In this document: piece by piece, positions 2,762 to 28,012 of the stretch
Layout: the number at the start of each line of letters is the position of its first letter
Numbering within the stretch: position 1 is the first letter of the stretch
From: an uncultured Thermodesulfobacteriota bacterium
Lineage (GTDB): Bacteria; Desulfobacterota; Anaeroferrophillalia; Anaeroferrophillales; Anaeroferrophillaceae
Direction: 5' to 3'
DNA length: 64,000 bases
Assembly (NCBI GenBank): GCA_964478545.1
Contig: CAYZIS010000009.1
Coordinates: 2,070-66,069, forward strand
Notes under the pieces: model-generated
What the model saw: the letters and a program-made list of their open reading frames with translations, nothing else
Database searches by the model: none
Told to the model about the DNA's origin: nothing
Position numbers and translations under genes: made by a program

Positions 2762-2980
2762 CTAATCCTTTCTTATGGTAATCTTATACTCGCCGCTTTC
2801 TTCACTGACATCGGTTACTTTCCACTCCTGACTGGTGGCGGCACGTGAGACATTTTCCTTTGAGGTCTCCGTATCTACAAGAATTTCAATCTCGTTTGAA
2901 TTTTCTGTCTTCATCTCATTCAGAGCCATTAAAACAGGTTGAGGGCAGGAAAGACCCCGGGCGTCAACTTTAGTACTCAT
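2762..2980 (-). CDS. yedF: TusA-like sulfurtransferase / YedF (CPxP motif)
   Basis: 72 aa with GLSCPQPVL, the TusA/YedF active-site motif. It lies immediately downstream of yedE. Confidence 0.65.
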   Translation of the reverse strand: MSTKVDARGLSCPQPVLMALNEMKTENSNEIEILVDTETSKENVSRAATSQEWKVTDVSEESGEYKITIRKD

Positions 2981-2995
2981 ATATTTCTCCCTTCT

Positions 2996-4304: not shown

Positions 4305-4952
4305 ACCATACATAAAAATAACAGTGCCGACCAAGGAATCGGCATCAGTAAAAATTATCTGGATAAAATATTTGATTCCTACTTCACCACTAAGCACAAA
4401 GACAGCGGCCTCGGGCTGGCAACGGTTTATTCCATTATTAAAAATCACCACGGCCAGATAAAGGTAGAATCAGAACCAGGGAAAGGAACCACCTTTACCA
4501 TTCTCCTTCCGGTTTCAGAGACGATGCAGGAAACCGACAGGGATGTGCCGGATAGCATTGAAACAGGACAAACTGGCAGTGGTAAAATCCTGATTATGGA
4601 TGACGAAGAAGTTGTAAGGGAAATCTGTGGTGAAATGCTCCTCACCATAGGATATACCGTTGACTATGCAGTAAATGGACAGGAAGTACTGGAAAAGTAT
4701 CAACAGGCCATGAAGGAGGAAAAACCTTTTGACCTGGTCATCATGGATTTAACCATTCCCGGCGGCATGGGCGGCAAAGAAGCCATCCGTAAACTGCTGG
4801 AAATCGACCCTCATGCCAGGGCCATTGTCAGCAGCGGTTATTTACACGATGATGTTATGGCCAATTACCAGGATTATGGATTTCAGGGAGTGGCGGCCAA
4901 ACCCTATTTACTTAGCAACCTGAATAAGGTAATAAAAAACATCATTCATTAA
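4305..4952 (+). pseudogene. Remnant of a hybrid histidine kinase: only the HATPase_c C-terminal part plus an intact CheY-like receiver domain remain. No HisKA domain or start codon precedes it; internal ATG at 4524.
   Basis: The frame contains ADQGIGISKNYLDKIFDSYFTTKHKDSGLGLATVYSIIKNHHGQIKVESEPGKGTTFTILLP (G1/G2 boxes) and then a receiver (ILIMDDEE...DLVIMDLTIPGGMGGKEA). The frame is closed by two stops at 4296-4304, and AT-rich non-coding sequence lies upstream. Confidence 0.55.
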
Positions 4953-7851: not shown

Positions 7852-9029
7852 AGCCAATCTATGTGGACAATAATGCCACTACCCAGGTAGCTCCCAAGGT
7901 ATTGGAAGCCATGCTCCCTTATTTCCGGGAATATTACGGCAATCCTTCCAGTATGCATACGTTTGGCGGCCAAGTGGGACCAAAAATCCGGGAAGCCCGG
8001 GAGCAGGTGGCCGAATTGGTGGGTGCTAACGCCGATGAAATCCTTTTTACCAGCTGTGGTTCTGAAAGCGATAACACCGCCATTCATTCCGCCCTGACCA
8101 GCAATCCTGAAAAACGCCACATAGTTATCAGCCGGGTGGAACATCCGGCAATCCGCTCCTTAGTTGCCAGTCTGAGCAAGCAGGGATACCGGATTTCGGA
8201 AATTCCGGTTGATAGCCAGGGTCATCTTAACCTGGAAAAGTTGCAGGAAAGCCTGACCCAGGATACAGCCATTGTTTCCATCATGTGGGCTAACAACGAA
8301 ACCGGAGTCATTTTTCCCATAGAAAAAATTGCCGAAATGGTTCATCGCCATGGAATCATTTTCCATACAGATGCGGTACAGGCAGTGGGGAAAATCCCCG
8401 TAAATCTGCGCAATACCACCATTGACATGCTCTCCCTCTCTGGGCATAAGCTACATGCAGCAAAAGGAATTGGAGCTTTATTTATTCGTAAAGGAACTAA
8501 ATTTTCCCCTTTTCTGATCGGAGGACACCAGGAACGGGGACGGCGGGCCGGGACCGAAAATGTTCCTGGAATCATCGGGCTGGGAGCCGGCTGCCAGCTG
8601 GCTAAAGAAAATATGGACCAGGAAAATTCCCGGGTCCGGAAGCTCCGTAACCACCTGGAAAAAGAGCTTCTCTACCGCATACCCAACTCGGTAGTCAACG
8701 GCGATCCGCTCCAGCGCCTGCCCAACACCAGCAATATCAGTTTCGAGTTTGTGGAGGGGGAAAGCATCCTGCTGATGCTCAATGAATTTAATATTTGTGC
8801 CTCATCAGGCTCAGCCTGCACTTCCGGTTCCCTGGAACCTTCCCATGTCATCCGGGCCATGGGAGTTCCCTTTACCATGGCCCACGGTTCCATTCGCTTC
8901 AGCCTCAGTATTTATAATACCCGGGAGGAAGTTGATTTCATCATTGAAAAGTTGCCACCGGTGATTGAACGTCTGCGCCTCATGTCGCCATTTGGCAACC
9001 AGGGCAATAAGGCCTGCACCCTGCAATAA
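7848..9029 (+). CDS. nifS: Cysteine desulfurase NifS/IscS (class V aminotransferase)
   Basis: SGHKLHAAKG (the PLP lysine) and the SSGSACTSGS active-site Cys loop. The stop of nifU overlaps the start. Confidence 0.9.
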   Translation: MKPIYVDNNATTQVAPKVLEAMLPYFREYYGNPSSMHTFGGQVGPKIREAREQVAELVGANADEILFTSCGSESDNTAIHSALTSNPEKRHIVISRVEHPAIRSLVASLSKQGYRISEIPVDSQGHLNLEKLQESLTQDTAIVSIMWANNETGVIFPIEKIAEMVHRHGIIFHTDAVQAVGKIPVNLRNTTIDMLSLSGHKLHAAKGIGALFIRKGTKFSPFLIGGHQERGRRAGTENVPGIIGLGAGCQLAKENMDQENSRVRKLRNHLEKELLYRIPNSVVNGDPLQRLPNTSNISFEFVEGESILLMLNEFNICASSGSACTSGSLEPSHVIRAMGVPFTMAHGSIRFSLSIYNTREEVDFIIEKLPPVIERLRLMSPFGNQGNKACTLQ

Positions 9030-13629: not shown

Positions 13630-14223
13630 ATGAAGATAAAAATAAAAAAACTGGCGATGGTGCAGATGGGATATTCATTCCGATCCCGTCTTGAAGCCTC
13701 CAGTAGCGGTGGCGTCGCGGTTATCCAGATGAAAGACCTTCTTGATGACAACACGGTTGGCTGTGGTGACTTGGTAAAAATTGATATGGAGATGGTCAAA
13801 GAACATCACCTTGTGCAGAAGGGAGATTTGGTTTTCAGGTCGCGTGGACACGTAACTACGGCAGCGGTTCTTCTTGAGGAACCGGGGAAGGCGGTTGTTG
13901 CCGCTCCTCTATTAAGGATAAGGATTACCAAGCCGGACAGGGTTTTGCCCGAGTATCTGAACTGGTACATCAGCCAACGGGATGCGCAGATTTTCCTGAC
14001 CAGCAGAGCCAAAGGCACGGTCCAGAAGATGATCAGCAAACAGGCGATTGAGGAGCTTGAAGTTTCATTGCCAAGTTTGGAAAAACAGAAAAATATCGTT
14101 GAGCTGGCATCGCTTATCGCGAGAGAACAAAACCTGCTTCAGCAGATTTCCGAAAAGCGGGAGAAATACATCTCAACAGTACTCATGCAGTTTGCCAAAG
14201 GAACCACGAATGCACACCAATAA
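13630..14223 (+). CDS. hsdS: Type I RM specificity subunit, half-size HsdS (single target-recognition domain plus a conserved coiled region)
   Basis: LPSLEKQKNIVELASLIAREQNLLQQI is the HsdS conserved repeat. Length 197 aa. A -35/-10-like promoter (TTGACA at about 13562) lies upstream. Confidence 0.7.
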   Translation: MKIKIKKLAMVQMGYSFRSRLEASSSGGVAVIQMKDLLDDNTVGCGDLVKIDMEMVKEHHLVQKGDLVFRSRGHVTTAAVLLEEPGKAVVAAPLLRIRITKPDRVLPEYLNWYISQRDAQIFLTSRAKGTVQKMISKQAIEELEVSLPSLEKQKNIVELASLIAREQNLLQQISEKREKYISTVLMQFAKGTTNAHQ

Positions 14224-14648: not shown

Positions 14649-16277
14649 ATGAACAGCAAGATTGACCAGAGAGACATCAACAACGCGGCCTGGGCGGCGT
14701 GTGACACCTTCCGAGGGGTTGTTGATCCGGCCCAGTACAAAGACTACATCCTGGTGATGCTGTTTTTGAAATACATCTCCGATGTCTGGCAGGACCATTA
14801 CGATGAATATCAAAAGCAGCATGGCGATGATGATGTTCGTATCCGCCGCAAACTCGAGCGTGAACGCTTTGTTCTCCCAATAGTGAAACTGACGGAAAAA
14901 AATGATCAGACCGGTGAAGAAACGGTGCTAGATGAGTTCCCCGCCAACTACTACAGCCTTTACGAACGCAGATCAGCCGCCAATATCGGTGAGCTGATCA
15001 ACATCGTTCTCGACCATATTGAAGAAAACAACAAGACCAAACTTGAAGGGGTTTTCCGCAATATCGACTTTAACAGCGAGGCCAATCTTGGCAAGACCAA
15101 AGACCGTAACCGCCGCCTGAAACAGCTGCTGGAAGATTTCCATAAACCACAACTCAACATGAAGCCCAGCCTCGTCTCCGAGGATGTGATCGGCAACACT
15201 TATATCTATCTGATCGAACGTTTTGCTTCCGACTCCGGAAAGAAGGCCGGGGAGTTCTTTACCCCGCTGAAGGTTACCGAACTGGTCGCCAAGCTGGCCG
15301 GCCCTAAACCGGGCGACCGTATCTGCGACCCGGCCTGCGGCTCCGGCGGTCTGTTGATTCAGGCAGCCAAACAGGTGGGCGACCTGTCTGCGGGCAACAC
15401 ACAGGCAGGCCGTAACTTTGCCCTCTTCGGCCAAGAATCAAACGGCAGCACCTGGGCGCTCTGCCGCATGAATATGTTCCTCCACAGTTTTGACAGCGCC
15501 CGGATTGAGTGGTGCGATACGCTGAACAGCCCGCTCTTGGTTGAAAATGATCGCCTGATGAAATTCAACTGCGTGGTGGCCAATCCGCCATTTTCGCTGG
15601 ACAAATGGGGCGCTGAGAATGCTGAGAGCGATCAATACAACCGCTTCTGGCGCGGCGTTCCGCCAAAAAGCAAAGGCGACTGGGCCTTTATCAGTCACAT
15701 GGTGGAAATTGCACTGGAAAAAGAGGGTCGTGTGGTCGTGGTGGTTCCCCACGGGGTGCTGTTCCGAGGCGCTGCCGAGGGACGTATCCGGGAAAAGATG
15801 ATTGAAGAAAACCTGCTTGATGCGGTGATCGGCCTGCCGGGCAACCTGTTTCCGACCACCAATATTCCGGTGGCGATTCTGGTCTTTGACCGCTCAAGGG
15901 AAAAAGGCGGTGCCCGCGAAGCGTGCAAGAATGTTCTCTTTATTGATGCCAGTCGGGAGTTTGTCTCCGGTAAAAACCGGAATACCCTTTCTGAAGAACA
16001 TCTGGCCAAGATCATGGAAATCTACACGGCCAGAACCGAAGTGGAAAAATACGCCCATGTGGCTGACGTTGTAGAGATCAAGGAAAACGACTTCAACCTC
16101 AACATCCCCCGCTATGTGGACACCTTTGAAGAGGAAGAGGAAATCGACATCGATGCGGTTCAGCTGGAAATTGAGGCGCTGGAAAAAGAGCTGGCAGAAG
16201 TGCGGGTGAAAATGGCCGAAAAAATGCAGCAAATCCAGAGAAACCACGAATGCACACAAATAGACACGAATGTTTAG
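14649..16277 (+). CDS. hsdM: Type I RM DNA methyltransferase subunit (N6-adenine)
   Basis: VANPPF catalytic motif, a DPACGSGG AdoMet motif, an HsdM N-terminal domain, and 542 aa. The last 11 codons are supplied by repeat element R. Confidence 0.9.
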   Translation: MNSKIDQRDINNAAWAACDTFRGVVDPAQYKDYILVMLFLKYISDVWQDHYDEYQKQHGDDDVRIRRKLERERFVLPIVKLTEKNDQTGEETVLDEFPANYYSLYERRSAANIGELINIVLDHIEENNKTKLEGVFRNIDFNSEANLGKTKDRNRRLKQLLEDFHKPQLNMKPSLVSEDVIGNTYIYLIERFASDSGKKAGEFFTPLKVTELVAKLAGPKPGDRICDPACGSGGLLIQAAKQVGDLSAGNTQAGRNFALFGQESNGSTWALCRMNMFLHSFDSARIEWCDTLNSPLLVENDRLMKFNCVVANPPFSLDKWGAENAESDQYNRFWRGVPPKSKGDWAFISHMVEIALEKEGRVVVVVPHGVLFRGAAEGRIREKMIEENLLDAVIGLPGNLFPTTNIPVAILVFDRSREKGGAREACKNVLFIDASREFVSGKNRNTLSEEHLAKIMEIYTARTEVEKYAHVADVVEIKENDFNLNIPRYVDTFEEEEEIDIDAVQLEIEALEKELAEVRVKMAEKMQQIQRNHECTQIDTNV

Positions 16278-16305
16278 AACCACGGAAAGCTCAAGGAGAT
16301 TCAGC

Positions 16306-16900
16306 GATGAATAAAGACAAAGGCAAACTTTCCCTTCAAGATGAATTAGCCGAATTTCTGCTGTACACCACTCCAGATGGAGGAGTGAAGGTGGAGGTTT
16401 TCCTTTACGGCGAGACCGTCTGGCTACCGCAGAAACGTATTGCAGAGCTCTTTGGGGTTGGTGTGCCTGCCATTTCCAAGCACTTGGATAATATTTACGC
16501 AAGCGGTGAACTGGAAAAACCAGCAACTGTTTCCATTTTGGAAACAGTTCAGCTGGAAGGGAAACGTCAAGTGGCGCGATCTGACACCACTATCGGGAAA
16601 AACTATCTGTCAGAAACGGAAATCAAACAGTTGGAACGTACTGTATCCGCATTCTTTGACTACATTGAAAACATCGTTGAACGCCGCAATAGCTTTACCA
16701 TGAAAAGCTTTACAGCGAGCGTGAATAAGTTTTTGGAGTTCAATGAATATAAAATTCTGGAAGGTCACGGCTCTATTTCCCGCATGCAGGCGGAAGAGAA
16801 GGCTTTCGGCGAATACGAAAGGTTCAACAAGACACAGCTTATAGATTCTGATTTTGACAGGATGGTGAAGGAGTTGTCTACGGAGGGGAACCACGAATGA
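16306..16900 (+). CDS. RhuM-family N-terminal-domain paralogue (short). The track ORF starts at 16250, inside the repeat.
   Basis: YTTPDGGVKVEVFLYGETVWLPQKRIAELFGVGVPAISKHLDNIYASGEL parallels the RhuM N-terminus of the 21515 gene. The conserved leader AAGGAGATTCAGCGATG precedes it. Confidence 0.5.
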
Positions 16901-17039
16901 GCATGAATAGACACGAATAATTAGAACCACGGACGACACGGAAAAACACTGAATTGAAAGCGTTTGATTTTCCGTGCCTTCCGTGCCTTCCGTGCTTTCC
17001 GTGGTTAAAGATGGCCGATAAGCTCAAGGAGATTCAGCG

Positions 17040-17933
17040 ATGATAAATATTGATATTGAAAAACATCACCATCAGACATTTGAGAAAATCAAGCAGACGG
17101 CACAGAATGGTTCTGAGTTCTGGATGGCGCGCCGACTAGCCAAGCTCCTCGACTACGCTGAGTTTCGCAATTTTCTGCCGGTCATCGAAAAGGCGAAAAA
17201 AGCCTGTGAAAATAGTGGTCAGTCCGTGAAAAACCATTTCGTGGAAATGCACGAGATGGTTTCAATTGGTTCCGGAGCTGAGCGAAAAATGAAATCCTAC
17301 GGGCTCTCCCGTTATGCCTGTTACTTGATTGTACAAAATGGCGACCCATCCAAGCCGGTCATCGCCAACGGTCAGACCTATTTCGCCATGCAGACCCGAA
17401 GGCAGGAATTAGCCGATGACCAGGCTTTTCAGCGCCTCAAGGAGGATGAAAAGCGCCTTTTTCTGCGCAACGAAATGCGGGAGCACAACAAACAGCTGGT
17501 GGAAGCTGCTCAACAGGCTGGTGTTGAATCCAATCTCGACTTTGCCATATTCCAGAACCATGGCTACAAAGGACTGTACGGTGGGCTGGACGCCAAGGGG
17601 ATTCATAAACATAAAGGATTGAAAAAGAGCCAACAAATTCTCGACAACATGGGTAGCACCGAACTTGCCGCCAACCTTTTTCGCGCTACGCAAACCGAAG
17701 AAAAACTGCGCCGGGAAAATATTCAGGGCAAGACCAAGGCTAACAAAACCCATTTTGAAGTCGGTAAAAAAGTCCGCCAAACCATCGAAGAACTTGGTGG
17801 AACCATGCCGGAAAATCTCCCGACACCGGACGAAGACCTAAAGAAACTGAAAAGACGGGTGAAGTCGGCAGGGAAAAAGCTGATCAAAGGGTGTGAACTG
17901 CCGGAAAGAGGAACCACGAATGCACACGAATAG
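17040..17933 (+). CDS. dinD: DNA-damage-inducible protein D (DinD) family protein
   Basis: The N-terminus HHQTFEKIKQTAQNGSEFWMARRLAKLLDYAEFRNFLPVIEKAKKACENSG closely matches the DinD family. Such genes are frequently embedded in Type I RM loci. Confidence 0.6.
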   Translation: MINIDIEKHHHQTFEKIKQTAQNGSEFWMARRLAKLLDYAEFRNFLPVIEKAKKACENSGQSVKNHFVEMHEMVSIGSGAERKMKSYGLSRYACYLIVQNGDPSKPVIANGQTYFAMQTRRQELADDQAFQRLKEDEKRLFLRNEMREHNKQLVEAAQQAGVESNLDFAIFQNHGYKGLYGGLDAKGIHKHKGLKKSQQILDNMGSTELAANLFRATQTEEKLRRENIQGKTKANKTHFEVGKKVRQTIEELGGTMPENLPTPDEDLKKLKRRVKSAGKKLIKGCELPERGTTNAHE

Positions 17934-18053
17934 ACACGAATGCTTAGAACCACGGACGACACGGAAAAACACGGAATTGAGAACGTTTAATCTTCCGTGC
18001 CTTCCGTGCTTTCCGTGGTTAAAAATAGCCGAGAAACTCAATGAGATTCAGCG

Positions 18054-19250
18054 ATGAACAAAAAAGATGCTCTCCCAAAAGGATGGAAAAACATAAAGCT
18101 TAAAAAGCTTGTTACTCAGGAAATCAAGAATGGCTATTCACCCAACTGTCCTGAAGAACCAAACGGGAGTTGGATTCTGGGCTTAGGAAATTTAACCGAA
18201 AACGGGTTTGATCCATCCCAGGCAAAACCAGCTCCCAAAGGTGATAGCAGAGTAAAAGACTTTTTACTTGAACCTGGTGATTTTTTAATTAGTCGATCTA
18301 ACACGTTAGACAAGGTTGGAAGGACAATGTTGTTCAGAGGTGAAATTGAAAACTGCTCTTATCCAGATTTACTCATGAGATTTCGTGTAGATGAAACTTA
18401 GGTTACAAATGAATTTTTGGAGGGGTATTTAAGGAGCTCAGTAGTCAGGAAATACATCCAAGGCTGCGCCTCTGGTACAAGCAACAGCATGGTGAAGATC
18501 AATAAAACAATTGTCGAAAAAATACCTATTGTTTTGCCTCCCCATCCAGAGCAAAAAGCCATTGCCGATTTGCTGTCCACCTGGGATGAGGCCATCGAGA
18601 AAACCGAACGGCTGATTCTGGCGCAGGAGAAGCGGTTTAAACAACTGCTGCGGGAGTTGTTAAGAGAAAAAGTCGAGCTGGGGAAAATTGAATTAGGGAA
18701 GGTTTGTAAGATAACAAAAGGAAAACAGTTAAATATAGCTCATATGAATCGTGATGGTTATTATTATGCCTTAAATGGCGGGATTAAACCATCTGGAAGA
18801 ACTGATGATTGGAACACCAAAGCAGGAACCATAACTATCAGTGAAGGTGGAAACTCATGCGGATATGTAAACTTCAATACACAAAGATTCTGGTCTGGTG
18901 GGCATTGTTATTCACTTCTTAATCTAAAAAAATCTGTAGACTCACACTACCTGTTCTTTTATCTAAAAATGAACGAGCCCAAACTTATGAACTTACGGGT
19001 TGGATCTGGACTCCCCAACATACAAAAGAAAGACGTTGATCGGTTTAAAATATCGATCCCACCGCTCGCAGAACAGCATCAAATAGCCGAGACATTATCC
19101 GCCGCCCAACAGGAAATCAACCTGCTGAAACAGCTTGCAGAAAGATACAAAACCCAGAAACGCGGTCTGAGGCAGAAGATGCTCACGGGCGAATGGCGGG
19201 TAAAACCTGAAATCATTACCCAATATGCGGAAGAGGTGCCATGCAAATAA
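18054..19250 (+). pseudogene. hsdS: Type I RM specificity subunit (two TRDs) interrupted by an in-frame TAG at 18399-18401. Both halves are in the same frame.
   Basis: TRD1 (18054-18398), then TAG, then VTNEF-LEGYLRS..., central conserved region, TRD2, and the C-terminal conserved ISIPPLAEQHQIAETLSAAQQEINLLKQLAERYK. Confidence 0.65.
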
Positions 19251-19840
19251 AGCTTACCTATTACAAACCGCAGACGTTGATCCCGGTTATCGGTCTGCTC
19301 TGGGCTCTTTCATCGTGGGCGCTTTCTAAGCTTTGGGGTTACGGCTTCCTACAAGGCACCGGGCCAACCGCCATCGTGATATTTTTTCTAACAGTCTATG
19401 ACAAGTGGCTGTGGAAATACCCTTTGTTTAACTTAATGAACACAATCCCAAACTTGAACGGCATGTATGAAGGAAAAATATCCTTTCACTGGAACGGACA
19501 GGCTGAATCAAAAGACTGTGAACTAGAAATCAAGCAAACCTGTTCAAACATAAAGGTAAAAACGATTTTCACGAAAGAAGGCGAAAACGATACACAGTCC
19601 GTCAGCACCGAAGCATTCATAAAAACTGACGAGGTTAGCGACCAGCATCTCTATTTTTATTATCGCAGTCGTGGTTCCGGGATGGATGGTGACACTCTTG
19701 ATCAGCACGAGGGTATGAATGTTTTGGAGATTCTGAAGAACAACGGATTGATCCAGCTTGATGGATACTATTTTACCAACCGTAATCCTCAAACAAAAGG
19801 CTGCATGAAAGCTACGAAAACAAACAAAGGAGCTAAATAA
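19241..19840 (+). CDS. Small membrane protein with two N-terminal TM helices and a beta-rich C-terminal domain (Cap15-like or 2TM-type CBASS effector candidate)
   Basis: TM1 is LIPVIGLLWALSSWALSKLW and TM2 is GPTAIVIFFLTVYDKWLWKY, followed by about 130 aa of beta-type sequence. The start overlaps the hsdS stop, and the stop overlaps the next start (TAATG). Confidence 0.4.
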   Translation: MQIKLTYYKPQTLIPVIGLLWALSSWALSKLWGYGFLQGTGPTAIVIFFLTVYDKWLWKYPLFNLMNTIPNLNGMYEGKISFHWNGQAESKDCELEIKQTCSNIKVKTIFTKEGENDTQSVSTEAFIKTDEVSDQHLYFYYRSRGSGMDGDTLDQHEGMNVLEILKNNGLIQLDGYYFTNRNPQTKGCMKATKTNKGAK

Positions 19841-20823
19841 TGGATACACATAAACTGTTCTCTGATTTCGATGCTGTAATTCGACTAAACACCTCAAAAA
19901 TAAGTAAATTAAAAAGCAACCGCACAGCACTCCGCAATAAAATTAAAGATCACTTCAAAAAGAACAACTGGACCGCACCAAAATTCTACTCTCAGGGTTC
20001 CTTCCCTTTGAACACAAACCTAAATCCGATCAAAAAAACTACAAGTGATGGAGATGTTAAAGAAGAGTATGACTTGGATGATGGCGTGTATTTCATCTGC
20101 CCAAAATCAGAGCGCAAAGAGCCAGCGACTTATCATGATCGCATCAAGAAGGCTGTGGATGATCATGCCGAAAGCGTCATAGACAAAACAACCTGTGTTA
20201 GGGTTGTATACATAGATGGACATCACATTGATCTGCCGTCTTATTGGCTTGAAAAGGACGGTAACACACCACAACTTACTCACAAGTCTAAAGGTTTTAC
20301 TGATAGCGACCCGAAAGCTTTTAATGAATGGGTTGATGACAATATTTCCAGAGCCAGTAACAATGGTCAACTCCGCAGAATCATCCGCTACTTAAAGGCA
20401 TGGAAGAATTATCGTGAAAATAGCAACAGTACTCTGGAGCTACCGTCAGGTTTCATTTTAACGATTTTGGCATGCAATCATTTTTCAAAGAACAGCCGTG
20501 ATGATCTATCCTTCAAAGGAACAGTTGAATCTATCAAAAATTCACTAAATTTAAGCTTCACCTGTTATCGTCCAACCGTCCCCACCCATGAGGAGCTTTT
20601 GTTTGATTATTCAAAAGATACAGTAATAAAAGAGCTAACCAGCCTGATCGACAACGCACAGAAAGCGATTGATTCGGATTGTGAGAAAAAAGCGTCTGAA
20701 TTCTGGCACAAAGTGTTTGGGGATCGTTTCCCGTCGGGTAAAGAGAAGGATGAGAAGCCCAAGCAATCTACAGCATCCAACACAACCAGAACAAAGGTCA
20801 GTGCTCCATGGGCATCGTTCTAA
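19840..20823 (+). CDS. cGAS/DncV-like nucleotidyltransferase (CD-NTase, SMODS-domain) candidate
   Basis: Pol-beta NTase signature QGSF...SDGDV...YDLDDG, a later VRVVYIDGHHIDLP (third acidic strand), and a C-terminal helical region RRIIRYLKAWKNY typical of CD-NTases. Length 327 aa. Confidence 0.5.
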   Translation: MDTHKLFSDFDAVIRLNTSKISKLKSNRTALRNKIKDHFKKNNWTAPKFYSQGSFPLNTNLNPIKKTTSDGDVKEEYDLDDGVYFICPKSERKEPATYHDRIKKAVDDHAESVIDKTTCVRVVYIDGHHIDLPSYWLEKDGNTPQLTHKSKGFTDSDPKAFNEWVDDNISRASNNGQLRRIIRYLKAWKNYRENSNSTLELPSGFILTILACNHFSKNSRDDLSFKGTVESIKNSLNLSFTCYRPTVPTHEELLFDYSKDTVIKELTSLIDNAQKAIDSDCEKKASEFWHKVFGDRFPSGKEKDEKPKQSTASNTTRTKVSAPWASF

Positions 20824-21440
20824 CAGAACAAGATAAACAAGAGTTGGCTCAAGATTACCCTGCGCTTAACTGTAGTTTGCCGCGAGGGGTAATCTGGGGA
20901 ACCTTGGAGTTGGCTTGTTCATTCGATGAGTCCGCAAATGAAGTTGTTCATGAAGACTCATTTGATAATTACATCCGCGACTGTTATGAGATACGCGTCG
21001 ATTTCAATCAGGCAGACACTTTTGGTTTTCCCAAAGTGTTCGAGGAGTCGGGAATCATTAGAAATTTTGCGGACAGCAATGGTATCAAGCCAGAAGATTT
21101 GCATGTAAACAAAGATGATGCTGACAGCTGCTGTTTGGGGATCTTCCCTGAATATCATTGGACAGGTGCCGCTTCATTCATACGAGATAAGGTAGTGCCG
21201 TTTTTTTACTGGCAGTCTTATCGACGCTTCTATGAGAAAAAACCATGGAAAGGCTATACACATGGCAACCGTGGCATTGTGGAGGCGATGAGTATGCCTC
21301 TCAATGAATCCTCAAAAGGTCACTCACGTAATAAACGATGCCCATGCGGAAGCGGCCAAAAATACAAAAAATGTTGCATGTCTCGAGATGCGATTCTGCG
21401 AAATAAACTATCCAAATCTATTACATCTCGAAAGAGTTGA
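20808..21440 (+). CDS. UBC/E2-like fold protein with a C-terminal SEC-C metal-binding motif (candidate Cap2-like E2-only accessory)
   Basis: Pattern LAQDYPALNCSLPRGVIWGTLEL...YEIRVDF...FPKVF...LHVNKDDADSCCLGIFPEYHW resembles the UBC fold (an HPN-like HVN plus a catalytic Cys). It ends CPCGSGQKYKKCC. The 5' end overlaps the NTase gene by 16 nt. Confidence 0.35.
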   Translation: MGIVLTEQDKQELAQDYPALNCSLPRGVIWGTLELACSFDESANEVVHEDSFDNYIRDCYEIRVDFNQADTFGFPKVFEESGIIRNFADSNGIKPEDLHVNKDDADSCCLGIFPEYHWTGAASFIRDKVVPFFYWQSYRRFYEKKPWKGYTHGNRGIVEAMSMPLNESSKGHSRNKRCPCGSGQKYKKCCMSRDAILRNKLSKSITSRKS

Positions 21441-21442
21441 TA

Positions 21443-21505
21443 ATGACCAATTTCCAAATAAACGAAAAGCATCTTTCTCAAATCCCTGCGATTTTGAGTT
21501 ATTAG
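21443..21505 (+). pseudogene. Duplicated 5' end of hsdR (20 codons, MTNFQINEKHLSQIPAILSY*) left upstream of the inserted rhuM
   Basis: AAATAAACGAAAAGCATCTTTCTCAA is repeated at 21454-21480 and at 22558-22587 (the true hsdR start MHNFQINEKHLSQLPAV). Confidence 0.5.
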
Positions 21506-21514
21506 GGGTGAGTT

Positions 21515-22555
21515 ATGAATAATGATGGCTTGAAAAACAACTCTGAGCTCATGATCTACCAAACCCCTGATGGGAGTATCAAAATAGATGTCCGCCTTGA
21601 GGATGAAAGCGTCTGGCTGACACAGGCGCATATGGCGAAGCTGTTTCAGGTGAAACCGCAGAATATCACCATGCACCTGAAAAACATCTATGCCGAGGGT
21701 GAACTATCCGAAAAGGCAACTTGTCAGGAATTCTTACAAGTTCAAACCGAGGGTTCCCGTCAGGTTGAACGAAAACGGAAGCTTTACAATCTCGACGCAA
21801 TTATTTCCGTGGGTTACCGTATCCAGTCTCAAGTGGCGACCCACTTCCGCATCTGGGCGACGCAACGACTGAAAGAGTACATTGTCAAAGGCTTTGCGTT
21901 AAACGATGACAGATTCAAAAGTGGTCAATCAATGAACTATTTCACGGAACTGCAGGAACGCATCCGCGAAATTCGGCTCTCCGAGCGGTTTTTTTATCAG
22001 AAGATCAAGGACATCTACACCACCAGCATTGACTATGACCCCAGGGATGAAAAGACGATTGAGTTCTTCAAGATCGTTCAAAACAAGTTGCTTTGGGCGA
22101 TCAGCGAACAGACGGCGGCGGAGCTAATCTATCGTCGCGCGGATGCGGCATTGCCCCTAATGGGAATGCAGTCGTTCGATAAGAAAGGCGTGCCGGTCCG
22201 GAAAGGCGATGTTAACATCGCCAAAAACTATCTTCAGGAAGATGAAATAAAACTGCTGGGGTTACTGGTGGAACAGTATCTTGCCTTTGCCGAAACCATG
22301 GCACAACAGCACACAACGATGTATATGAAGGACTGGATTGGGCGGCTTGATGCCATCATTCAACTGAACGGACGGGAACTGCTCACTCACGCCGGAAAGA
22401 TCAGCCATCAACTGGCGTTGGAGAAATCGGCCCGGGAGTATGAAAAATACCAAGAAACACAAAAGCAACTTCAGCACAAAGAGAGTCTGCGGGAACTGGA
22501 GCAGGATCTAAAGCGGCTCAAAAAACCTGGGCAGGCTGGAGACGGCAATGCATAA
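21515..22555 (+). CDS. rhuM: Virulence protein RhuM family (Fic/DOC-related) protein
   Basis: 346 aa. LMIYQTPDGSIKIDVRLEDESVWLTQAHMAKLFQV...ISVGYRIQSQVATHFRIWATQRLKEYIVKGFALNDDRFK is the RhuM family signature. Confidence 0.8.
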   Translation: MNNDGLKNNSELMIYQTPDGSIKIDVRLEDESVWLTQAHMAKLFQVKPQNITMHLKNIYAEGELSEKATCQEFLQVQTEGSRQVERKRKLYNLDAIISVGYRIQSQVATHFRIWATQRLKEYIVKGFALNDDRFKSGQSMNYFTELQERIREIRLSERFFYQKIKDIYTTSIDYDPRDEKTIEFFKIVQNKLLWAISEQTAAELIYRRADAALPLMGMQSFDKKGVPVRKGDVNIAKNYLQEDEIKLLGLLVEQYLAFAETMAQQHTTMYMKDWIGRLDAIIQLNGRELLTHAGKISHQLALEKSAREYEKYQETQKQLQHKESLRELEQDLKRLKKPGQAGDGNA

Positions 22556-25500
22556 CTTTCAGATAAACGAAAAGCATCTTTCTCAACTTCCGGCGGTGCA
22601 ACTGCTGATATCACTGAGCTATGAATATATTTCTCCGGTTGAAGCGCTCCGTGAACGACAGGGAAGAGTTGCCAATGTCTTGCTGGAAAACATTCTCCGC
22701 AATCAGCTCAAAGAAATCAACCGCATTCGCTACAAAGGAAATGAATATCTGTTTAGCGAGGAAAATGTTCAGTCCGCCATCCAGAAGCTGAAAAACATTA
22801 AATATGACGGTTTGCTGAAAACCAATGAAGCAATTTATGATCTGATCACCCTGGGAACGGCCATGGAGCAGACCATCGAGGGTGATTCTAAAAGTTATAA
22901 TTTGAACTATGTTGACTGGCACAATCCCGGCCGCAACAGATTTCACGTGACGGTTGAATACAGTGTTGAGCGGTCCCGGAGCACCGAGACCACCCGGCCG
23001 GATATTGTCCTCTTTGTTAACGGCATTCCTTTTTGCGTGATTGAATGCAAAGCCCCACAGATTGAAGTTGAACAGGCAGTCTCCCAATCCATTAGAAATC
23101 AGAACGACGACTATATTCCGAAGTTATTCATCTATACCCAGTTGGTTCTGGCATTCAATAAGAACAGCGCGATGTTCGCAACCACCGGAACTGCAGCAAA
23201 GTTCTGGTCCATCTGGAAGGAACCACGAATGGACACAAATAAACACGAATACAATAAATTGAAGAAACTGGTAGATGAGTCTGTTCGTGTTGAAATTGAA
23301 CCCAAATCCTTTGAGATTCACTCAGAGCAAAATATTAGTGAAGATTCGTGTTCATTCGTGGTTTCGAAAGAGCGTTTGGTGACGGAGCAAGACAAAGCCC
23401 TTTTTGCTCTCTGCCGCCCGGAACGCCTGCTGGAACTGGCTTGGAAGTTCATTGTTTTTGATGGCGGCATTAAAAAGATTGCCCGCTATCAACAGTATTT
23501 TGTCATCAAGTCCACTCTGAACCGGATCAAGCATTTTGACCGTAACGGTTCCCGCAAGGGCGGTGTTATCTGGCACACGCAGGGGTCAGGGAAATCCCTG
23601 ACCATGGTGATGCTGGCCCGGAATCTGGCCTTGGATCCGGAGATATTGAATCCTCGCATTGTTCTGGTCACCGACCGGGATGATTTGGACAAGCAGCTGG
23701 GTAATACTTTTGCCGCCTGCGGACTGGAAGCCAATCGGGCAACATCGGGAAGAAATCTGCTGGAGTTGGTAGCTGAAAAAAACTCCGGCATTATCACCAC
23801 GCTCATTCATAAATTCGACAAGGCTTACGCGGTAAGAAAATACCAGGATAAATCCCCCGACATTTTCATTCTTGTGGATGAAAGCCACCGTACCCAGTTC
23901 GGCTCGTTTTCCGCCCGTATGCGCCAGATGTTTCCCCATGCCTGCTATCTGGGATTTACAGGTACTCCGTTGCTGAAAAAAGAGAAAAACAACTTCACCA
24001 GGTTCGGAGAACTAGTGGAGCCGCATTACTCCATTTCACAGGCGGTAGAAGACGGCGCGGTCGTTCCACTCTTGTATGAAGGACGGCATGTGGAGATGAC
24101 CCAGAACAAGGCTGCTGTGGACCTCTGGTTCGAGCGTCATACCCAAGGCTTGAGCAAAGAACAGCAGGCGGACCTGAAACGTAAATATGCTCGGGCGGAA
24201 ATGCTGAACAAGGCTTATCAGGTCATTTACATGAGGGCCTTTGATATCAGTGAACACTTTCGGGCTAATTGGCAGGACACCGGGTTCAAGGCACAACTGG
24301 TCGCGCCAAATAAGGCTTCGGCGCTTAAATACCATGCGTATTTGAATGACATCGGCATGGTCAGTTCGGAAGTTGTTATTTCCCCTCCGGATATGCGTGA
24401 AGGCTATGAAAAGACGGACGATGAAACGACTGATGACGTGGTAAGGTTCTGGCAGAAAATGGTGAAACGCTATGGCAGCAAGGAGGAGTATACCAAGCAG
24501 CTCATCAACCAGTTTAAACACGGGAGCGATCCCGAAATCCTTATTGTCGTCGATAAGCTCTTAACCGGCTTTGACGCGCCAAGAAACGCGGTACTTTATT
24601 TATGCAGGGTTCTCAGGGAACATTCGTTGCTTCAGGCTATCGCGCGGGTTAACCGGATCCATGAAGGCAAGGAGTTCGGTTTTATCGTCGATTATGCAAA
24701 TGTTCTTGGTGAGCTGGATAAAGCGCTGACCATGTATAGCGCGTTTGAGGGTTTCGACGAATCGGATCTTGTCGGTACTCTTACTTCCATCAACAGCGAA
24801 ATTGAAAAACTGCCGGGGCGCTATTCGGATTTATGGGATTTCTTTAAGTCGGTAAAGCATTCTTATGATGAAGAGGCATACGAGGTTTTGCTTGCTGATG
24901 ATGAATTAAGGGAAGAGTTTTATAGTCGTCTTTCTGAATTTGGTAAAAACCTCGGTATCGCTCTTTCTTCTGAAAAGTTTTTGTCTGAGACAGATGAAAA
25001 AACTCTGTCCAGATACAAGGCTGATCTCCGGAAATTCCAATCGCTTAAGGCATCTGTCAAGTTGCGCTATGCTGAAGCTATTGATTACCGGGATTATGAG
25101 CCGAAAATCAAGAAGCTGCTGGATACCCATATTCAAGCCAATGAGGTTATCCAGCTCAACGAGCCGGTTAACATCTTCGATGACAAAATGTTCAATCAGG
25201 TAAAAGAGGAGCAAGGAGTTTATCAAACCAGGAAAACCACGGCCTCCAAAGCCGATATGATTGCTCACGCAACGAAAAAAGTGATTACGGAAAAAATGTT
25301 CGAAGACCCTGCTTTTTACGAAAAATTTTCAAAGCTGATCCAGCGGGCTATTGAAGATTTCAGAGCAAAAAGAATATCGGATCTGGATTATCTCAATAAA
25401 GTCGTTGAGGTCAGGAATAAAGTCGTCGGCAAGGTTCATGATGATGTTCCTGATAAACTTTCCGGCAATGAAGATGCCATGGCCTATTATGGGATACTGA

Positions 25501-25769
25501 AACCGTTCCTCGAAAATAACAAATTGAATGAAGAAGACCTTGAAGCTGCCACCGCAGATACGGCCATCGCTCTAAACGGTATTTTGGAAAAACACAAAAA
25601 AGTTCATTTCTGGGATGATGAGGATGCCCAGAAGCAAACGGTTAATGAGATTGACGATTACCTCTATGATGAACTTAAAACAGAAAGAGGTATCGAACTG
25701 TCGCTGGATCAGATGGATGACATCATTGAAAAGGTTCTGCAGGTGGCGAAACACCGGAGTTACAAATGA
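22548..25769 (+). CDS. hsdR: Type I RM restriction subunit HsdR (SF2 helicase/nuclease). It contains a 147-bp in-frame palindromic insertion at 23219-23365.
   Basis: QGSGKSLTMV (Walker A), VDESHR (DEAH box), and an N-terminal PD-(D/E)XK region (DIVLFVNGIPFCVIECK). Length 1073 aa. Confidence 0.9.
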   Translation: MHNFQINEKHLSQLPAVQLLISLSYEYISPVEALRERQGRVANVLLENILRNQLKEINRIRYKGNEYLFSEENVQSAIQKLKNIKYDGLLKTNEAIYDLITLGTAMEQTIEGDSKSYNLNYVDWHNPGRNRFHVTVEYSVERSRSTETTRPDIVLFVNGIPFCVIECKAPQIEVEQAVSQSIRNQNDDYIPKLFIYTQLVLAFNKNSAMFATTGTAAKFWSIWKEPRMDTNKHEYNKLKKLVDESVRVEIEPKSFEIHSEQNISEDSCSFVVSKERLVTEQDKALFALCRPERLLELAWKFIVFDGGIKKIARYQQYFVIKSTLNRIKHFDRNGSRKGGVIWHTQGSGKSLTMVMLARNLALDPEILNPRIVLVTDRDDLDKQLGNTFAACGLEANRATSGRNLLELVAEKNSGIITTLIHKFDKAYAVRKYQDKSPDIFILVDESHRTQFGSFSARMRQMFPHACYLGFTGTPLLKKEKNNFTRFGELVEPHYSISQAVEDGAVVPLLYEGRHVEMTQNKAAVDLWFERHTQGLSKEQQADLKRKYARAEMLNKAYQVIYMRAFDISEHFRANWQDTGFKAQLVAPNKASALKYHAYLNDIGMVSSEVVISPPDMREGYEKTDDETTDDVVRFWQKMVKRYGSKEEYTKQLINQFKHGSDPEILIVVDKLLTGFDAPRNAVLYLCRVLREHSLLQAIARVNRIHEGKEFGFIVDYANVLGELDKALTMYSAFEGFDESDLVGTLTSINSEIEKLPGRYSDLWDFFKSVKHSYDEEAYEVLLADDELREEFYSRLSEFGKNLGIALSSEKFLSETDEKTLSRYKADLRKFQSLKASVKLRYAEAIDYRDYEPKIKKLLDTHIQANEVIQLNEPVNIFDDKMFNQVKEEQGVYQTRKTTASKADMIAHATKKVITEKMFEDPAFYEKFSKLIQRAIEDFRAKRISDLDYLNKVVEVRNKVVGKVHDDVPDKLSGNEDAMAYYGILKPFLENNKLNEEDLEAATADTAIALNGILEKHKKVHFWDDEDAQKQTVNEIDDYLYDELKTERGIELSLDQMDDIIEKVLQVAKHRSYK

Positions 25770-26494
25770 TGGAGGCTGCAATTCATAACGATAAACGCTC
25801 GCTTGTTTATGGGCGCAAGACCATTGATTACAGTCTTTTCTATTGCGATAGAAAAACGATGGAAATTGCGGTTCATCCTGACAGTACCGTCATTGTCAAA
25901 GCACCGATCGACTCCGATATTTCGTTGATCGAGAAAAAGTTAAATAAAAGAGGACGATGGATTTTCAGACAGTTGAACTACTTCAGGCAGTTTAATCCCA
26001 AAACACCTGATCGATGCTATGTGAATGGTGAAACCCACCTGTATCTTGGAAAGCAATATCGCTTAAAACTGACGGAGGGCTCAGAAAATTCAGTAAAGCT
26101 GGTCCGGGGCTTTTTTTATATTACCTGCCGTGATGTACCAAGCCCGGCAACAGCCAAAAAGCTTTTGCACAAGTGGTATTTGGAAAAGGCGGCCAGGCAA
26201 TTCAAAGAAAGCATGGATCGCTGCTGGCAAAAATTCTCCAACTTCGATTTTAGCAAACCCAATTTATCGATCAAACGAATGCAAAAAAGATGGGGCAGCC
26301 TTTCAGAAAAAGGAACGGTGACACTCAATACCGATCTGATCAGAGCACCCAAGGAATGTATTGAGTACGTTGTAACCCACGAACTGTGCCATTTGAAATA
26401 TCGTAATCACAGCCCCGAATTTTATAAGCTGCTCGATTCTGTTATCCCCGGCTGGGAAAAGATAAAACACAGACTTGAACTCAGTATGATGTGA
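25766..26494 (+). CDS. M48/YgjP-like zinc metallopeptidase (DUF45), commonly co-encoded with hsdR
   Basis: HELCHLKYRNH is an HExxH motif. Length 242 aa. The start overlaps the hsdR stop. Confidence 0.6.
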   Translation: MMEAAIHNDKRSLVYGRKTIDYSLFYCDRKTMEIAVHPDSTVIVKAPIDSDISLIEKKLNKRGRWIFRQLNYFRQFNPKTPDRCYVNGETHLYLGKQYRLKLTEGSENSVKLVRGFFYITCRDVPSPATAKKLLHKWYLEKAARQFKESMDRCWQKFSNFDFSKPNLSIKRMQKRWGSLSEKGTVTLNTDLIRAPKECIEYVVTHELCHLKYRNHSPEFYKLLDSVIPGWEKIKHRLELSMM

Positions 26495-26597
26495 ATATGA
26501 ACAGAATTATTTTAATAAAGACTAATGTGGTTTAATTTTAACGGACACTTTTCTGCTATGAGTCATTAAACAGCAAAACCAGTAAGCGAGGTGTCCA

Positions 26598-26727
26598 ATG
26601 ATTGAAAAATAAAAGCGGCCAAAATACACGAAAGAATTCAAGCAAGATGCCATTAAACTGGTCGTAGAGCAGAGCAGTACAGCTTCCTGGGAAATATGTT
26701 CCGCAAGTACAGTTACCTATTATGACC
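26598..26727 (+). mobile_element. IS3-family transposase orfA 5' remnant (degenerate, with an in-frame stop)
   Basis: The frame reads MIEK*KRPKYTKEFKQDAIKLVVEQSSTAS, matching the IS3 OrfA HTH N-terminus. No remainder of the IS follows. Confidence 0.5.
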
Positions 26728-28012
26728 GACAGGTTTCCTTCATCACAAAGGTACAAAGCAGGCAGATGAGAGAAGAAACAGCGAGGATCAGCAACAGTTT
26801 GGAATAGGCCTCCAGCGCATAGCCACCGGCTGCGGTTTTAGGATAGGCATCCAGCACTTTTCCCAGCAGCGGCATAAAGACGGCACCGCCCAAAAAGGGG
26901 AAAAGGTTCACCGTCCCCACGGACGTGCCGGTAATGGCAGCCGGAAAAAGCTCCTTGGTGGTAGTAAAACCGATAACCACCACTGCCGATGAGCAGAAGG
27001 AAAAAAGGAAAAATATCACGTAGAGTGCTACTCGGGGCAGACCAACCGGATAGATGAAGAGAATGAAGAATTCAACCGTTAAAACGGCCATGCAGGCCAT
27101 CAATACCTTTTTACGACTGTGGATGATCCGCTCTGAAAGAAAGCCCAACAGGGGGCTGCCAAAAATCATTCCCCAGGCAATCATGCTGAGAATAGCTCCG
27201 GACTCTGAGCGATTTAGGCCATAGACATCCATCAGGTAAGGACCGCTCCACAAAGCACCAAAACCGAAAAAAATACCACAGTCAAAGAAAAACCAGATAG
27301 CTACCGGCCAGAAATATTTCTCTGTCACCACCTGTCTGGCACCTTCCCACAAACCTATTTCTGCCGTTACCGGGGCCGTTCCCTCTCCCCGCTGATCAAT
27401 TTCTGCCAGAGATGGCCAGCCACGATCAGCAGGACGATCACGGACAATCAGCCAAACCAGAAGGACAAGGAAAAAGGTTAATATCCCGATCAATTCAAAG
27501 GAAATCCGCCAACCCAGATGACCGGTCATCAAGGCCAGAAACCAGGTGGCCGCCATCACCCCGATGCCGCCAACAGCATTGAGAATCCCGGCCATAATTG
27601 CAAATTCCCGGGTTCGAAACCACTGGGAAAGAATTTTCATGGTGGGGATGAAAACCATGGATACCCCAAAGCCCACCATAACCCGACCGATAAAAGCTAT
27701 TTTGATCGTTGGGGCAAAGCCGAACAGGAGGCTGCCGACTGCCGCCAACAGCAGAAAAGAAGTAACGGTCTTGCGTGGTCCCAGGGAGTCGGAAAGTAAG
27801 CCTGCGGGAAACTGCATGACCGCATAGCAATAAAAATAAATTGACCCTAACAGGCCCATAACCCCAGCACTGGCGTGAAAATCCTGTATTAAGTCATTGG
27901 CGACCACGGATAGGGAAAGACGGTGGAAATAGACAAAAAAATAAGCCAATGCCAGAACCAGGAAAATAAACCAGCGAAAGCTAAGAACCTTTTTCCCCGG
28001 TGATAGAGCCAT
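26720..28012 (-). CDS. MFS transporter (12 TM)
   Basis: 430 aa. Typical MFS motifs (GxLaDrxGrR-like FIGRVMVGFG) and 12 predicted helices. Confidence 0.8.
   Translation of the reverse strand: MALSPGKKVLSFRWFIFLVLALAYFFVYFHRLSLSVVANDLIQDFHASAGVMGLLGSIYFYCYAVMQFPAGLLSDSLGPRKTVTSFLLLAAVGSLLFGFAPTIKIAFIGRVMVGFGVSMVFIPTMKILSQWFRTREFAIMAGILNAVGGIGVMAATWFLALMTGHLGWRISFELIGILTFFLVLLVWLIVRDRPADRGWPSLAEIDQRGEGTAPVTAEIGLWEGARQVVTEKYFWPVAIWFFFDCGIFFGFGALWSGPYLMDVYGLNRSESGAILSMIAWGMIFGSPLLGFLSERIIHSRKKVLMACMAVLTVEFFILFIYPVGLPRVALYVIFFLFSFCSSAVVVIGFTTTKELFPAAITGTSVGTVNLFPFLGGAVFMPLLGKVLDAYPKTAAGGYALEAYSKLLLILAVSSLICLLCTFVMKETCRS

Follow-up and report, generated by a model that had tools for sequence, protein, structure and literature searches.

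A truncated hsdR start between CBASS and rhuM genes is a probable scar of recombination in a type I restriction-modification operon

Type I restriction-modification (R-M) operons can carry embedded defence genes, as EcoprrI carries PrrC, and to our knowledge little study has been devoted to how such genes enter them. Two preprints treat the embedding itself as established (10.1101/2024.01.29.577857; 10.1101/2024.04.04.588119) and place TgvAB of the Vibrio cholerae pathogenicity island VPI-2 (Vibrio pathogenicity island 2) inside a type I R-M operon (10.1101/2024.04.04.588119), and work on the PADLOC ‘guilt-by-embedding’ candidates lists PDC-S05, which is RhuM, among them (10.1101/2024.01.29.577857; 10.1101/2024.09.26.614923). 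One PDC-S05/RhuM representative protected against T7 and T5 about 1000-fold and against T4 about 10-fold (10.1101/2024.09.26.614923). Narrow text searches of the two embedding papers for insertion scars or a mechanism returned nothing (10.1101/2024.01.29.577857; 10.1101/2024.04.04.588119). Here we analyzed a 64-kb stretch of DNA from an uncultured Thermodesulfobacteriota bacterium (contig CAYZIS010000009.1, positions 2,070 to 66,069; hereafter the window), which holds a predicted type I R-M operon that has cargo at two places: the first site separates hsdM from hsdS, the second hsdS from hsdR. Hidden Markov model (HMM) searches indicated that the second site is filled by a short type II cyclic oligonucleotide-based antiphage signalling system (CBASS) and by rhuM. 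As with the known embedded genes, this cargo lies between hsdS and hsdR, where Fic, Schlafen/AlbA_2, TIR proteins and YhcG are found in relatives; 78 related loci (given L numbers below), with amino acid identities of 62-93%, were obtained by scanning species-representative genomes with HsdR. Between the CBASS genes and rhuM of the window lies a short copy of the hsdR start, the stub, and we consider it probable that this is a remnant of another hsdR allele, namely its first 48 nt, which stayed in the operon when two blocks of cargo were joined there.

A repeat search of the region returned a direct repeat of 49 nt (21442-21490 and 22547-22595; 82% identity, spacing 1105 nt). Window positions 21443-21490 match nt 1-48 of hsdR (22548-22595) at 39 of 48 positions (81%), and the word shared exactly is the 24-nt ATAAACGAAAAGCATCTTTCTCAA, at 21458-21481 and 22563-22586. 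With up to three mismatches allowed, this core has exactly two matches in the window, a result equalled by none of 100 dinucleotide shuffles. A first-pass annotation, made from the letters of the window, had reported that the repeat occurs twice, that its first copy opens a 20-codon open reading frame (ORF) right behind the E2-like CBASS gene, that its second copy starts the 1073-aa HsdR, and that rhuM sits between the two and runs into the hsdR start. These observations are confirmed: the ORF begins 2 nt past the E2-like stop codon, TGA, and the end of rhuM runs 8 nt into hsdR (coordinates in Table 1). The positions given for the repeat were a few bases off, and its 26-mer is exact in the first copy only (AAATAAAC), the second copy reading AGATAAAC at the same spot.

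The stub matches an nhmmer profile of 65 hsdR 5′ ends at an E value of 1e-8. Its homology begins at the start codon and is then truncated, as in an hsdR 5′ pseudogene fragment; the tail of the ORF, 21491-21505, is out of hsdR register and closes with TAG at 21503-21505. The 20-codon ORF should be flagged in annotation as an hsdR fragment and not as a gene. An nhmmer alignment together with a 13-nt match (TGAGyTATGAATA) had extended the stub to hsdR nt 80; we rejected this longer version, as the added sequence is the rhuM leader of L012, L013, L016 and L074, whose rhuM genes have a tGAGgTATGA-type leader in common with that of the window. The stub arrangement is identical in contigs of two independent samples (European Nucleotide Archive ERZ27316679 and Logan SRR8862235), and it is therefore not an assembly artefact.

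The two copies do not look like a fresh duplication. Over the 16 codons compared there are nine differences, six of them at third positions, and four of the six differing codons are synonymous. When the stub is set against 65 hsdR 5′ ends, it comes closest to the allele of L004 (41/48), followed by four other alleles (40/48), and it is no closer to its own neighbour than 39/48; the neighbouring hsdR start likewise finds its best matches (42/48) in other genomes. Among random pairs of alleles, 16% agree at 39 or more of 48 positions and 5.8% have an exact run of at least 24 nt. Because of this pattern of divergence, and because the stub is not closest to its neighbour, the copies behave as two diverged alleles of one gene under coding constraint, not as the halves of an on-the-spot duplication. 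We also asked whether the DNA of the hsdR 5′ end is unusually conserved, as might be expected of a recombination site. It is not: third-position identity is 0.41-0.57 over the initial 120 nt and 0.42-0.63 over the remainder of the 660 nt examined.

The family to which the operon belongs is widespread. Its 78 loci span Desulfobacterota, Chlorobiota, Spirochaetota, Planctomycetota, Kiritimatiellota, Bacillota, Nitrospirota, Gammaproteobacteria and a Methanosarcinales metagenome-assembled genome (MAG; L049), and protein identities of 62-93% across at least ten phyla point to very active horizontal transfer of the operon. All 78 loci have the same frame (hsdS-like gene, hsdM, cargo, hsdS, cargo, hsdR, ygjP), and the interval between hsdS and hsdR ranges from 142 nt to 8.5 kb. 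The cargo is modular, with Fic in 17 loci, Schlafen/AlbA_2-wHTH in 17 and RhuM in 12, besides two other CBASS types, ThsB-like TIR, TIR-SLOG, AAA_13, OLD-like, YhcG/DUF1016 and DUF2188 genes.

We surveyed 65 loci for stubs by peptide, nhmmer and blastn scans upstream of the true hsdR. Stubs anchored at the hsdR 5′ end were present in seven of them, the window included (Table 1), before rhuM, Fic or YhcG genes. Apart from these, the 508 kb of upstream sequence contained no hsdR fragments other than a piece adjoining the stub of L042 and copies of the iteron repeat element described below; matches of 17 nt in L039 and of 20 nt on the minus strand of L018 were treated as chance or unrelated. Among other rhuM insertions, L035, L129 and L130 have a stub, and most rhuM-hsdR loci, about 13 with rhuM directly before hsdR, have none. 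The closest RhuM homologues, searched for the junction of the window, yielded only the differing Electrothrix-type stub; L123-L126 and L128 are stubless, and the rhuM of L127 lies outside any R-M locus. The signature is thus recurrent, not specific to rhuM and not obligatory.

Two pairs of loci differ by an insert. In Ca. Electrothrix aarhusensis (L077) a Fic-like gene is followed directly by hsdR, with no rhuM. The locus of Ca. E. laxa (L035) is collinear with it at 96% as far as hsdR nt 25 and again, at 90%, from nt 10 onward, the insert being 1079 nt of leader, rhuM and new hsdR start with hsdR nt 10-25 on both sides; L129 and L130 have the same stub as L035, and L077 differs from all three by this unit. 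In the second pair, L005 and L071 are 91% collinear over a stretch that comprises a TIR-SLOG gene followed by 174 nt of hsdR, after which L071 has a 742-nt Fic insert and then hsdR anew from nt 1. The L071 stub agrees with the functional hsdR of L053 at 89 of 90 positions but reaches no more than 84% identity with the hsdR of its own locus, and 17 of these 27 differences fall at third positions. The two copies in L071 therefore came from different alleles. L019 agrees with L071 in its Fic gene and in the right-hand end of its stub, and the two loci differ in the 5′ halves of their stubs and in their upstream genes. In these pairs the unit gained or lost is a cargo gene plus a new hsdR start, the start coming from another allele. 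The first-pass proposal that rhuM is a later insertion holds in that an insert with a duplicated hsdR start is real; for the window, an incoming rhuM-hsdR block and an incoming block of CBASS plus stub are both compatible with what is seen.

The further proposal that the CBASS module once adjoined hsdR gains support from the stub, a truncated hsdR 5′ end whose ATG stands 2 nt past the E2-like gene. Comparable adjacency occurs in L026, L053 and L061, where a CBASS with an E2-like last gene lies directly upstream of hsdR; this final gene encodes 219 aa without a Pfam match, and in L053 it is 24% identical to the E2-like protein of the window over residues 4-189 (tblastn). In L083 a related Cap15/CD-NTase/E2 module follows hsdS, with an E2 66% identical to that of the window. 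A metagenome scan with the E2-like protein recovered L082 and L083 as its only true relatives, the remaining matches being to the SEC-C motif alone. Stubs can be read as dated footprints, this one recording that hsdR once began directly after the E2-like gene. In both relatives E2 and hsdR are separated by about 400 nt of remnants (L083 3689-4100, L082 690-1056), namely a leader fragment of rhuM type and a degenerate AlbA_2-wHTH C-terminus, which is another layered scar. A possible 17-nt stub in L083, ATGCACAATTCCATAT, was too weak to claim.

Stubs of core-gene ends mark both cargo sites. In simple loci hsdM ends with GCCGAGAAGCTCAAGGAGATTCAGCGATGA, the ATGA being the start of the next gene. 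In the window the hsdM 3′ end is repeated at 16287-16310, before a RhuM-like fragment, at 17011-17043, before dinD, and at 18025-18057, before the split hsdS, so that each hsdM-side cassette is preceded by an hsdM 3′-end stub with a Shine-Dalgarno sequence and an ATGA overlap, the mirror image of the hsdR stub. These stubs belong to junction units, of which the two full copies (150-160 nt) also have a block of CACGAAT iterons and a long hairpin of three 7-bp iterons (CACGGAA / TTCCGTG; RNA fold z = -4.9) for which Rfam holds no family. Within the window the iterons are confined to the R-M locus, and they recur in the same operon family across many phyla.

Taken together, we favour the following account. 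The operon family would circulate among many phyla and exchange cargo by recombination between related loci. A donor segment from another locus of the family would carry cargo already fused to its own hsdR start, here rhuM-hsdR; its right end would be joined by a homologous crossover inside hsdR, and its left end by an illegitimate joint a few dozen nucleotides inside the resident hsdR. The resident upstream cargo, here CBASS, would be kept intact, and this additive acquisition would leave the hsdR 5′ stub. The same structure would result from the mirror polarity, in which a CBASS block with the hsdR stub of its former neighbour was inserted upstream of a resident rhuM-hsdR. Since upstream cargo often abuts or overlaps the hsdR start (a 2-nt gap between E2-like gene and stub in the window; overlap by TIR-SLOG, rhuM and Fic genes elsewhere), only joints inside the hsdR 5′ end would spare it, and additive gains would leave stubs. 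Behind this account stand the homology of stub and hsdR, the divergence of the copies as alleles, the recurrence of stubs, the mirror-image stubs on the hsdM side, the insert pairs and the lack of transposon features; the mosaic flanks of the window locus fit homology-facilitated illegitimate recombination, with one homologous and one illegitimate joint. On this account the stub is an informative but ordinary recombination scar.

Several observations weigh against this reading. No donor, recipient or pre-insertion relative of the window locus was found, and the sequence of the closest hsdR (L007) is cut off at codon 24, so we infer the polarity and the exact joint. We saw no convincing microhomology at the window joint, 21490/21491, where the 13-nt TGAGyTATGAATA belongs to the rhuM leader of other loci. 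In classical experiments, homology-facilitated illegitimate recombination mostly deletes recipient DNA and does not duplicate it. The insert pairs cannot be polarised, and a deletion between the repeats may have removed rhuM from L077; a copy that was identical at first may also have been overwritten in a later homologous exchange. Finally, selection for joints in the hsdR 5′ end would follow from reasoning about cargo integrity. Allele affinity was tried as a guide to polarity and set aside: it links the stub to alleles of L004 and L053 type, but no reference could be taken from the hsdM side, which is too mosaic.

Whatever its origin, the stub might be kept as a functional short upstream ORF that couples translation of rhuM-hsdR to that of the CBASS genes. 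This idea, which is compatible with a scar, we hold tentatively, as a minority possibility suggested by the layout of the sequence. The ORF stays open for 20 codons, starts 2 nt past the E2-like stop, retains the ribosome-binding site and ATG of hsdR, and terminates 9 nt short of the rhuM ATG with a stop codon that overlaps GGGGTGAG; ribosomes could plausibly be handed from the CBASS genes to rhuM-hsdR in this way. The ORF of the Electrothrix stub likewise has 20 codons, with about 18 nt between its end and rhuM, and in L071 and L019 the end of the stub, AAGGAG-TAA-ACAA-ATG, gives the Fic gene a Shine-Dalgarno sequence and a stop where hsdR has AAAGAG. Other stubs (L019, L021, L046), however, have a frameshift or an internal deletion or lie far from the next start; the stub region gives no RNA structure signal (z +0.6), and promoter- or terminator-like sites are no commoner there than in shuffled sequence. 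In L071 (10160-10180) and L019 (10125-10145) the stub ends with CTTAAGGAGTAAACAAATG, compared with CTCAAAGAGATAAAC in hsdR, and the TAA is 7 nt before the Fic start; the AAGGAG and TAA may represent exaptation of a scar.

Two further models give the stub a part in moving cargo. It is conceivable, though we think it rather unlikely, that cargo is exchanged as promoter-less cassettes bounded by the hsdR 5′ end and by the hsdM 3′ end, with its Shine-Dalgarno sequence, ATGA overlap and iteron hairpins, each stub acting as homology arm and coupling leader, in a recombinase-free, integron-like form of island building. The evidence would allow stubs and junction units to make cargo portable between operons. 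Slightly less probable in our view is a Campbell-type or unequal crossover, in which a circular or misaligned segment of hsdR 5′ part, leader, rhuM and hsdR start underwent a single homologous crossover in the hsdR 5′ end and produced direct repeats. The stub would then be the left homology arm, and the cassette could hop between related operons or loop out. An insert flanked by direct repeats is what such an event predicts, as are the different 5′ halves and upstream genes that accompany the same Fic gene and stub right end in L071 and L019, expected of a crossover inside the stub; at the hsdM site junction units of 114-150 nt are repeated before each cassette, and both insert pairs fit loop-out deletion equally well. 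Yet the very first stub would still require an illegitimate event, the exact core of only 24 nt is a poor RecA substrate, neither circular forms nor rhuM-less variants were observed, and the window junction occurs in no other locus examined.

The first-pass annotation had interpreted the repeat as a target-site-like duplication carried by a rhuM insertion in hsdR, and this part of its interpretation is not supported; taken strictly, as a true target-site duplication made by rhuM as a mobile element, we regard it as very improbable. In a transposon target-site duplication the two copies start out identical and have a short, fixed length, and they enclose an element with terminal repeats and a transposase. 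The window resembles such a case in having direct repeats of the target gene exactly around the inserted gene, and rhuM genes are widespread and often lie inside R-M loci. Unlike such duplications, the copies here match at only 39 of 48 positions with a bias to third codon positions (six of nine differences), the stub is closer to other alleles than to its neighbour, the repeat varies from about 25 to about 230 nt across loci, Fic and YhcG are flanked in the same way, and the many stubless rhuM loci would remain to be explained. A repeat search found no terminal inverted repeats at the ends of the rhuM insert, whose sole product is a RhuM-family protein with neither a transposase nor an integrase domain, and the gene table of the source contig lists no recombinase within about 10 kb on each side of hsdR. 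An assembly chimera or chance similarity, which a mosaic locus in a metagenome-derived window might invite, has next to no probability given the two independent samples, the shuffles and the nhmmer match. As a whole, the first-pass interpretation is partly supported.

Table 1 Features of the R-M locus in the window and hsdR 5′ stubs in related loci
Feature	Coordinates	Strand	Remarks
Half-size HsdS-like gene	13630-14223		Upstream of hsdM
hsdM, type I methyltransferase	14649-16277	+	Pfam N6_Mtase (E 8e-101), HsdM_N; left edge of first cargo site
Partial junction unit	16237-16310	+	74 nt at true hsdM end: iteron block and AAGCTCAAGGAGATTCAGCGATGA, no hairpin; feeds RhuM-like 16307-16900
RhuM-like gene, internally deleted	16307-16900		hsdM-hsdS site; 197-216 aa
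Full junction unit 1	16884-17043	+	CACGAAT iterons, hairpin, hsdM 3′ stub 17011-17043 (MADKLKEIQR, stop); ATGA is dinD start
dinD / Bro-N	17040-17933
Full junction unit 2	17907-18057	+	Same make-up; hsdM 3′ stub 18025-18057 feeds split hsdS
hsdS N-terminal part	18054-18401		115 aa; matches PADLOC Specificity_I models
hsdS main part	18417-19250	+	Pfam Methylase_S (E 1e-34); left border of hsdS-hsdR cargo site
CBASS effector, Cap15-type 2TM	19241-19840	+	Pfam Cap15_CD_rec (E 6e-19); PADLOC Effector 2TM (E 8e-31)
CBASS CD-NTase (cGAS/DncV-like)	19840-20823	+	Pfam SMODS, DncV-like_NTFase; NCBIfam CBASS cGAMP synthase (E 6.5e-63, above cut-off)
CBASS E2-like, 210 aa, C-terminal SEC-C	20808-21440	+	PADLOC CBASS ‘E2’ (E 8e-21); Pfam SEC-C
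hsdR 5′ stub ORF	21443-21505	+	20 codons, MTNFQINEKHLSQIPAILSY, stop; hsdR homology 21443-21490
Exact 24-nt core, copy 1	21458-21481	+
Junction and rhuM leader	21491-21514	+	Contains stub TAG and Shine-Dalgarno-like GGGGTGAG
rhuM	21515-22555	+	346 aa; Pfam PF13310 (E 2e-102, profile positions 1-250 of 252); PADLOC PDC-S05 (E 1e-138)
Functional hsdR	22548-25769	+	1073 aa; HSDR_N, SWI2_SNF2, ResIII; repeat copy 2 at 22548-22595
ygjP-like metallopeptidase gene	25766-26494	+	PF01863; constant right-hand partner of hsdR, tblastn matches in nearly all loci
Window stub			48 nt, then rhuM
L035 stub (also L129, L130)			About 25-40 nt, then rhuM
L071 stub			174 nt, then Fic
L019 stub			Right end as in L071, internally deleted, then Fic
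L042 stub			About 230 nt and internal hsdR piece, then Fic
L046 stub			MTNTQINQKYLFKLL, stop, then Fic-rhuM
L021 stub			About 45 nt, with deletion, then YhcG/DUF1016

The genes around the scar fit the predicted operon (Table 1). HsdM is 83-91% identical in amino acid sequence to that of about 50 related loci, and HsdR combines an HSDR_N nuclease domain with superfamily 2 (SF2) motor domains in an operon with hsdM and hsdS. The adjacent CD-NTase, effector and E2-like genes would make the CBASS module a short type II system with E2 only. The nearest relatives of the window’s RhuM are 82-88% identical and of Electrothrix type. The locus is a mosaic, with rhuM nearest to L035 and the hsdR body, ygjP and right flank nearest to L007 (92-98% DNA identity in the centre of hsdR); the first 100-150 nt or so of hsdR are nearest to neither. 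Past ygjP (26500-26790) only L007, a Desulfobacterales MAG, matches, at 87-91%, which suggests that the window derives from a relative of that organism. A megablast search of E. coli genomes with the region had no hit, and an enterobacterial source is thereby excluded. Exact-protein look-ups of HsdR and RhuM returned the same locus only.

Other features of the locus deserve mention. The half-size HsdS-like gene is conserved in most related loci (55-86% identity), and the gene table of the source contig places a 46-aa PDDEXK_3 fragment just past it. The gene at 16307-16900 covers PDC-S05 profiles only in an N-terminal part (~5-85) and a C-terminal one (~227-332) and is a degraded cargo gene. 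The split of hsdS into ORFs of 115 and 277 aa recurs in L011, L029, L061, L068 and L071. Inside hsdR, an in-frame segment of ~150 nt (23216-23366) is flanked by inverted ATTCGTG iterons (…KEPRMDTNKHEY…SCSFVVSK…), and similar iteron-flanked insertions lie at hsdR nt ~670-820 in roughly 10 of 65 hsdR genes, for instance those of L009, L013, L043, L050, L054 and L072; the segment looks like a small palindromic element tolerated in a protein loop. In L013 and L017, hsdR nt ~2950-3080 has 50-90 nt in common with leaders before rhuM or other cargo in L008, L012, L016, L019, L045 and L058. AlbA_2/Schlafen 5′ stubs (MTKESQNIEWK…) with an iteron leader precede rhuM in L012 (~8489-8560) and L057 (~4358-4420) and YhcG in L021 (~8391-8450), and 3′ fragments of the AlbA_2/Schlafen gene lie behind the insert in L012 and L021, which suggests that the 5′ end of a cargo gene, too, can receive other cargo genes.

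If stubs arise as we propose, cargo comes with a replacement hsdR start from another allele and older cargo is preserved, and the parallel on the hsdM side suggests a general rule for the additive growth of defence islands embedded in operons. Systematic searches for stubs could then reconstruct the order in which cargo was acquired. In integrons a short ORF at attI aids translation of cassettes that have no ribosome-binding site. Like integron arrays, the operons described here stack promoter-less genes at one site, with repeated boundaries and a short upstream ORF possibly used for translation; unlike them, they have no integrase and no attC, and their boundaries are pieces of core genes. 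A comparable logic has been proposed for displaced modules in type VI secretion system (T6SS) and Rhs arrays (PMC5361080). In those arrays the fragment is a toxin C-terminus, whereas here it is the 5′ end of the downstream core gene hsdR or, at the other site, the 3′ end of hsdM; the old cargo here is intact and upstream, and there is no toxin-immunity logic. In both, a conserved gene serves as a homologous anchor, new modules bring a piece of the anchor gene with them, and older modules persist beside fragments of the conserved gene, so that the loci are mosaic arrays.

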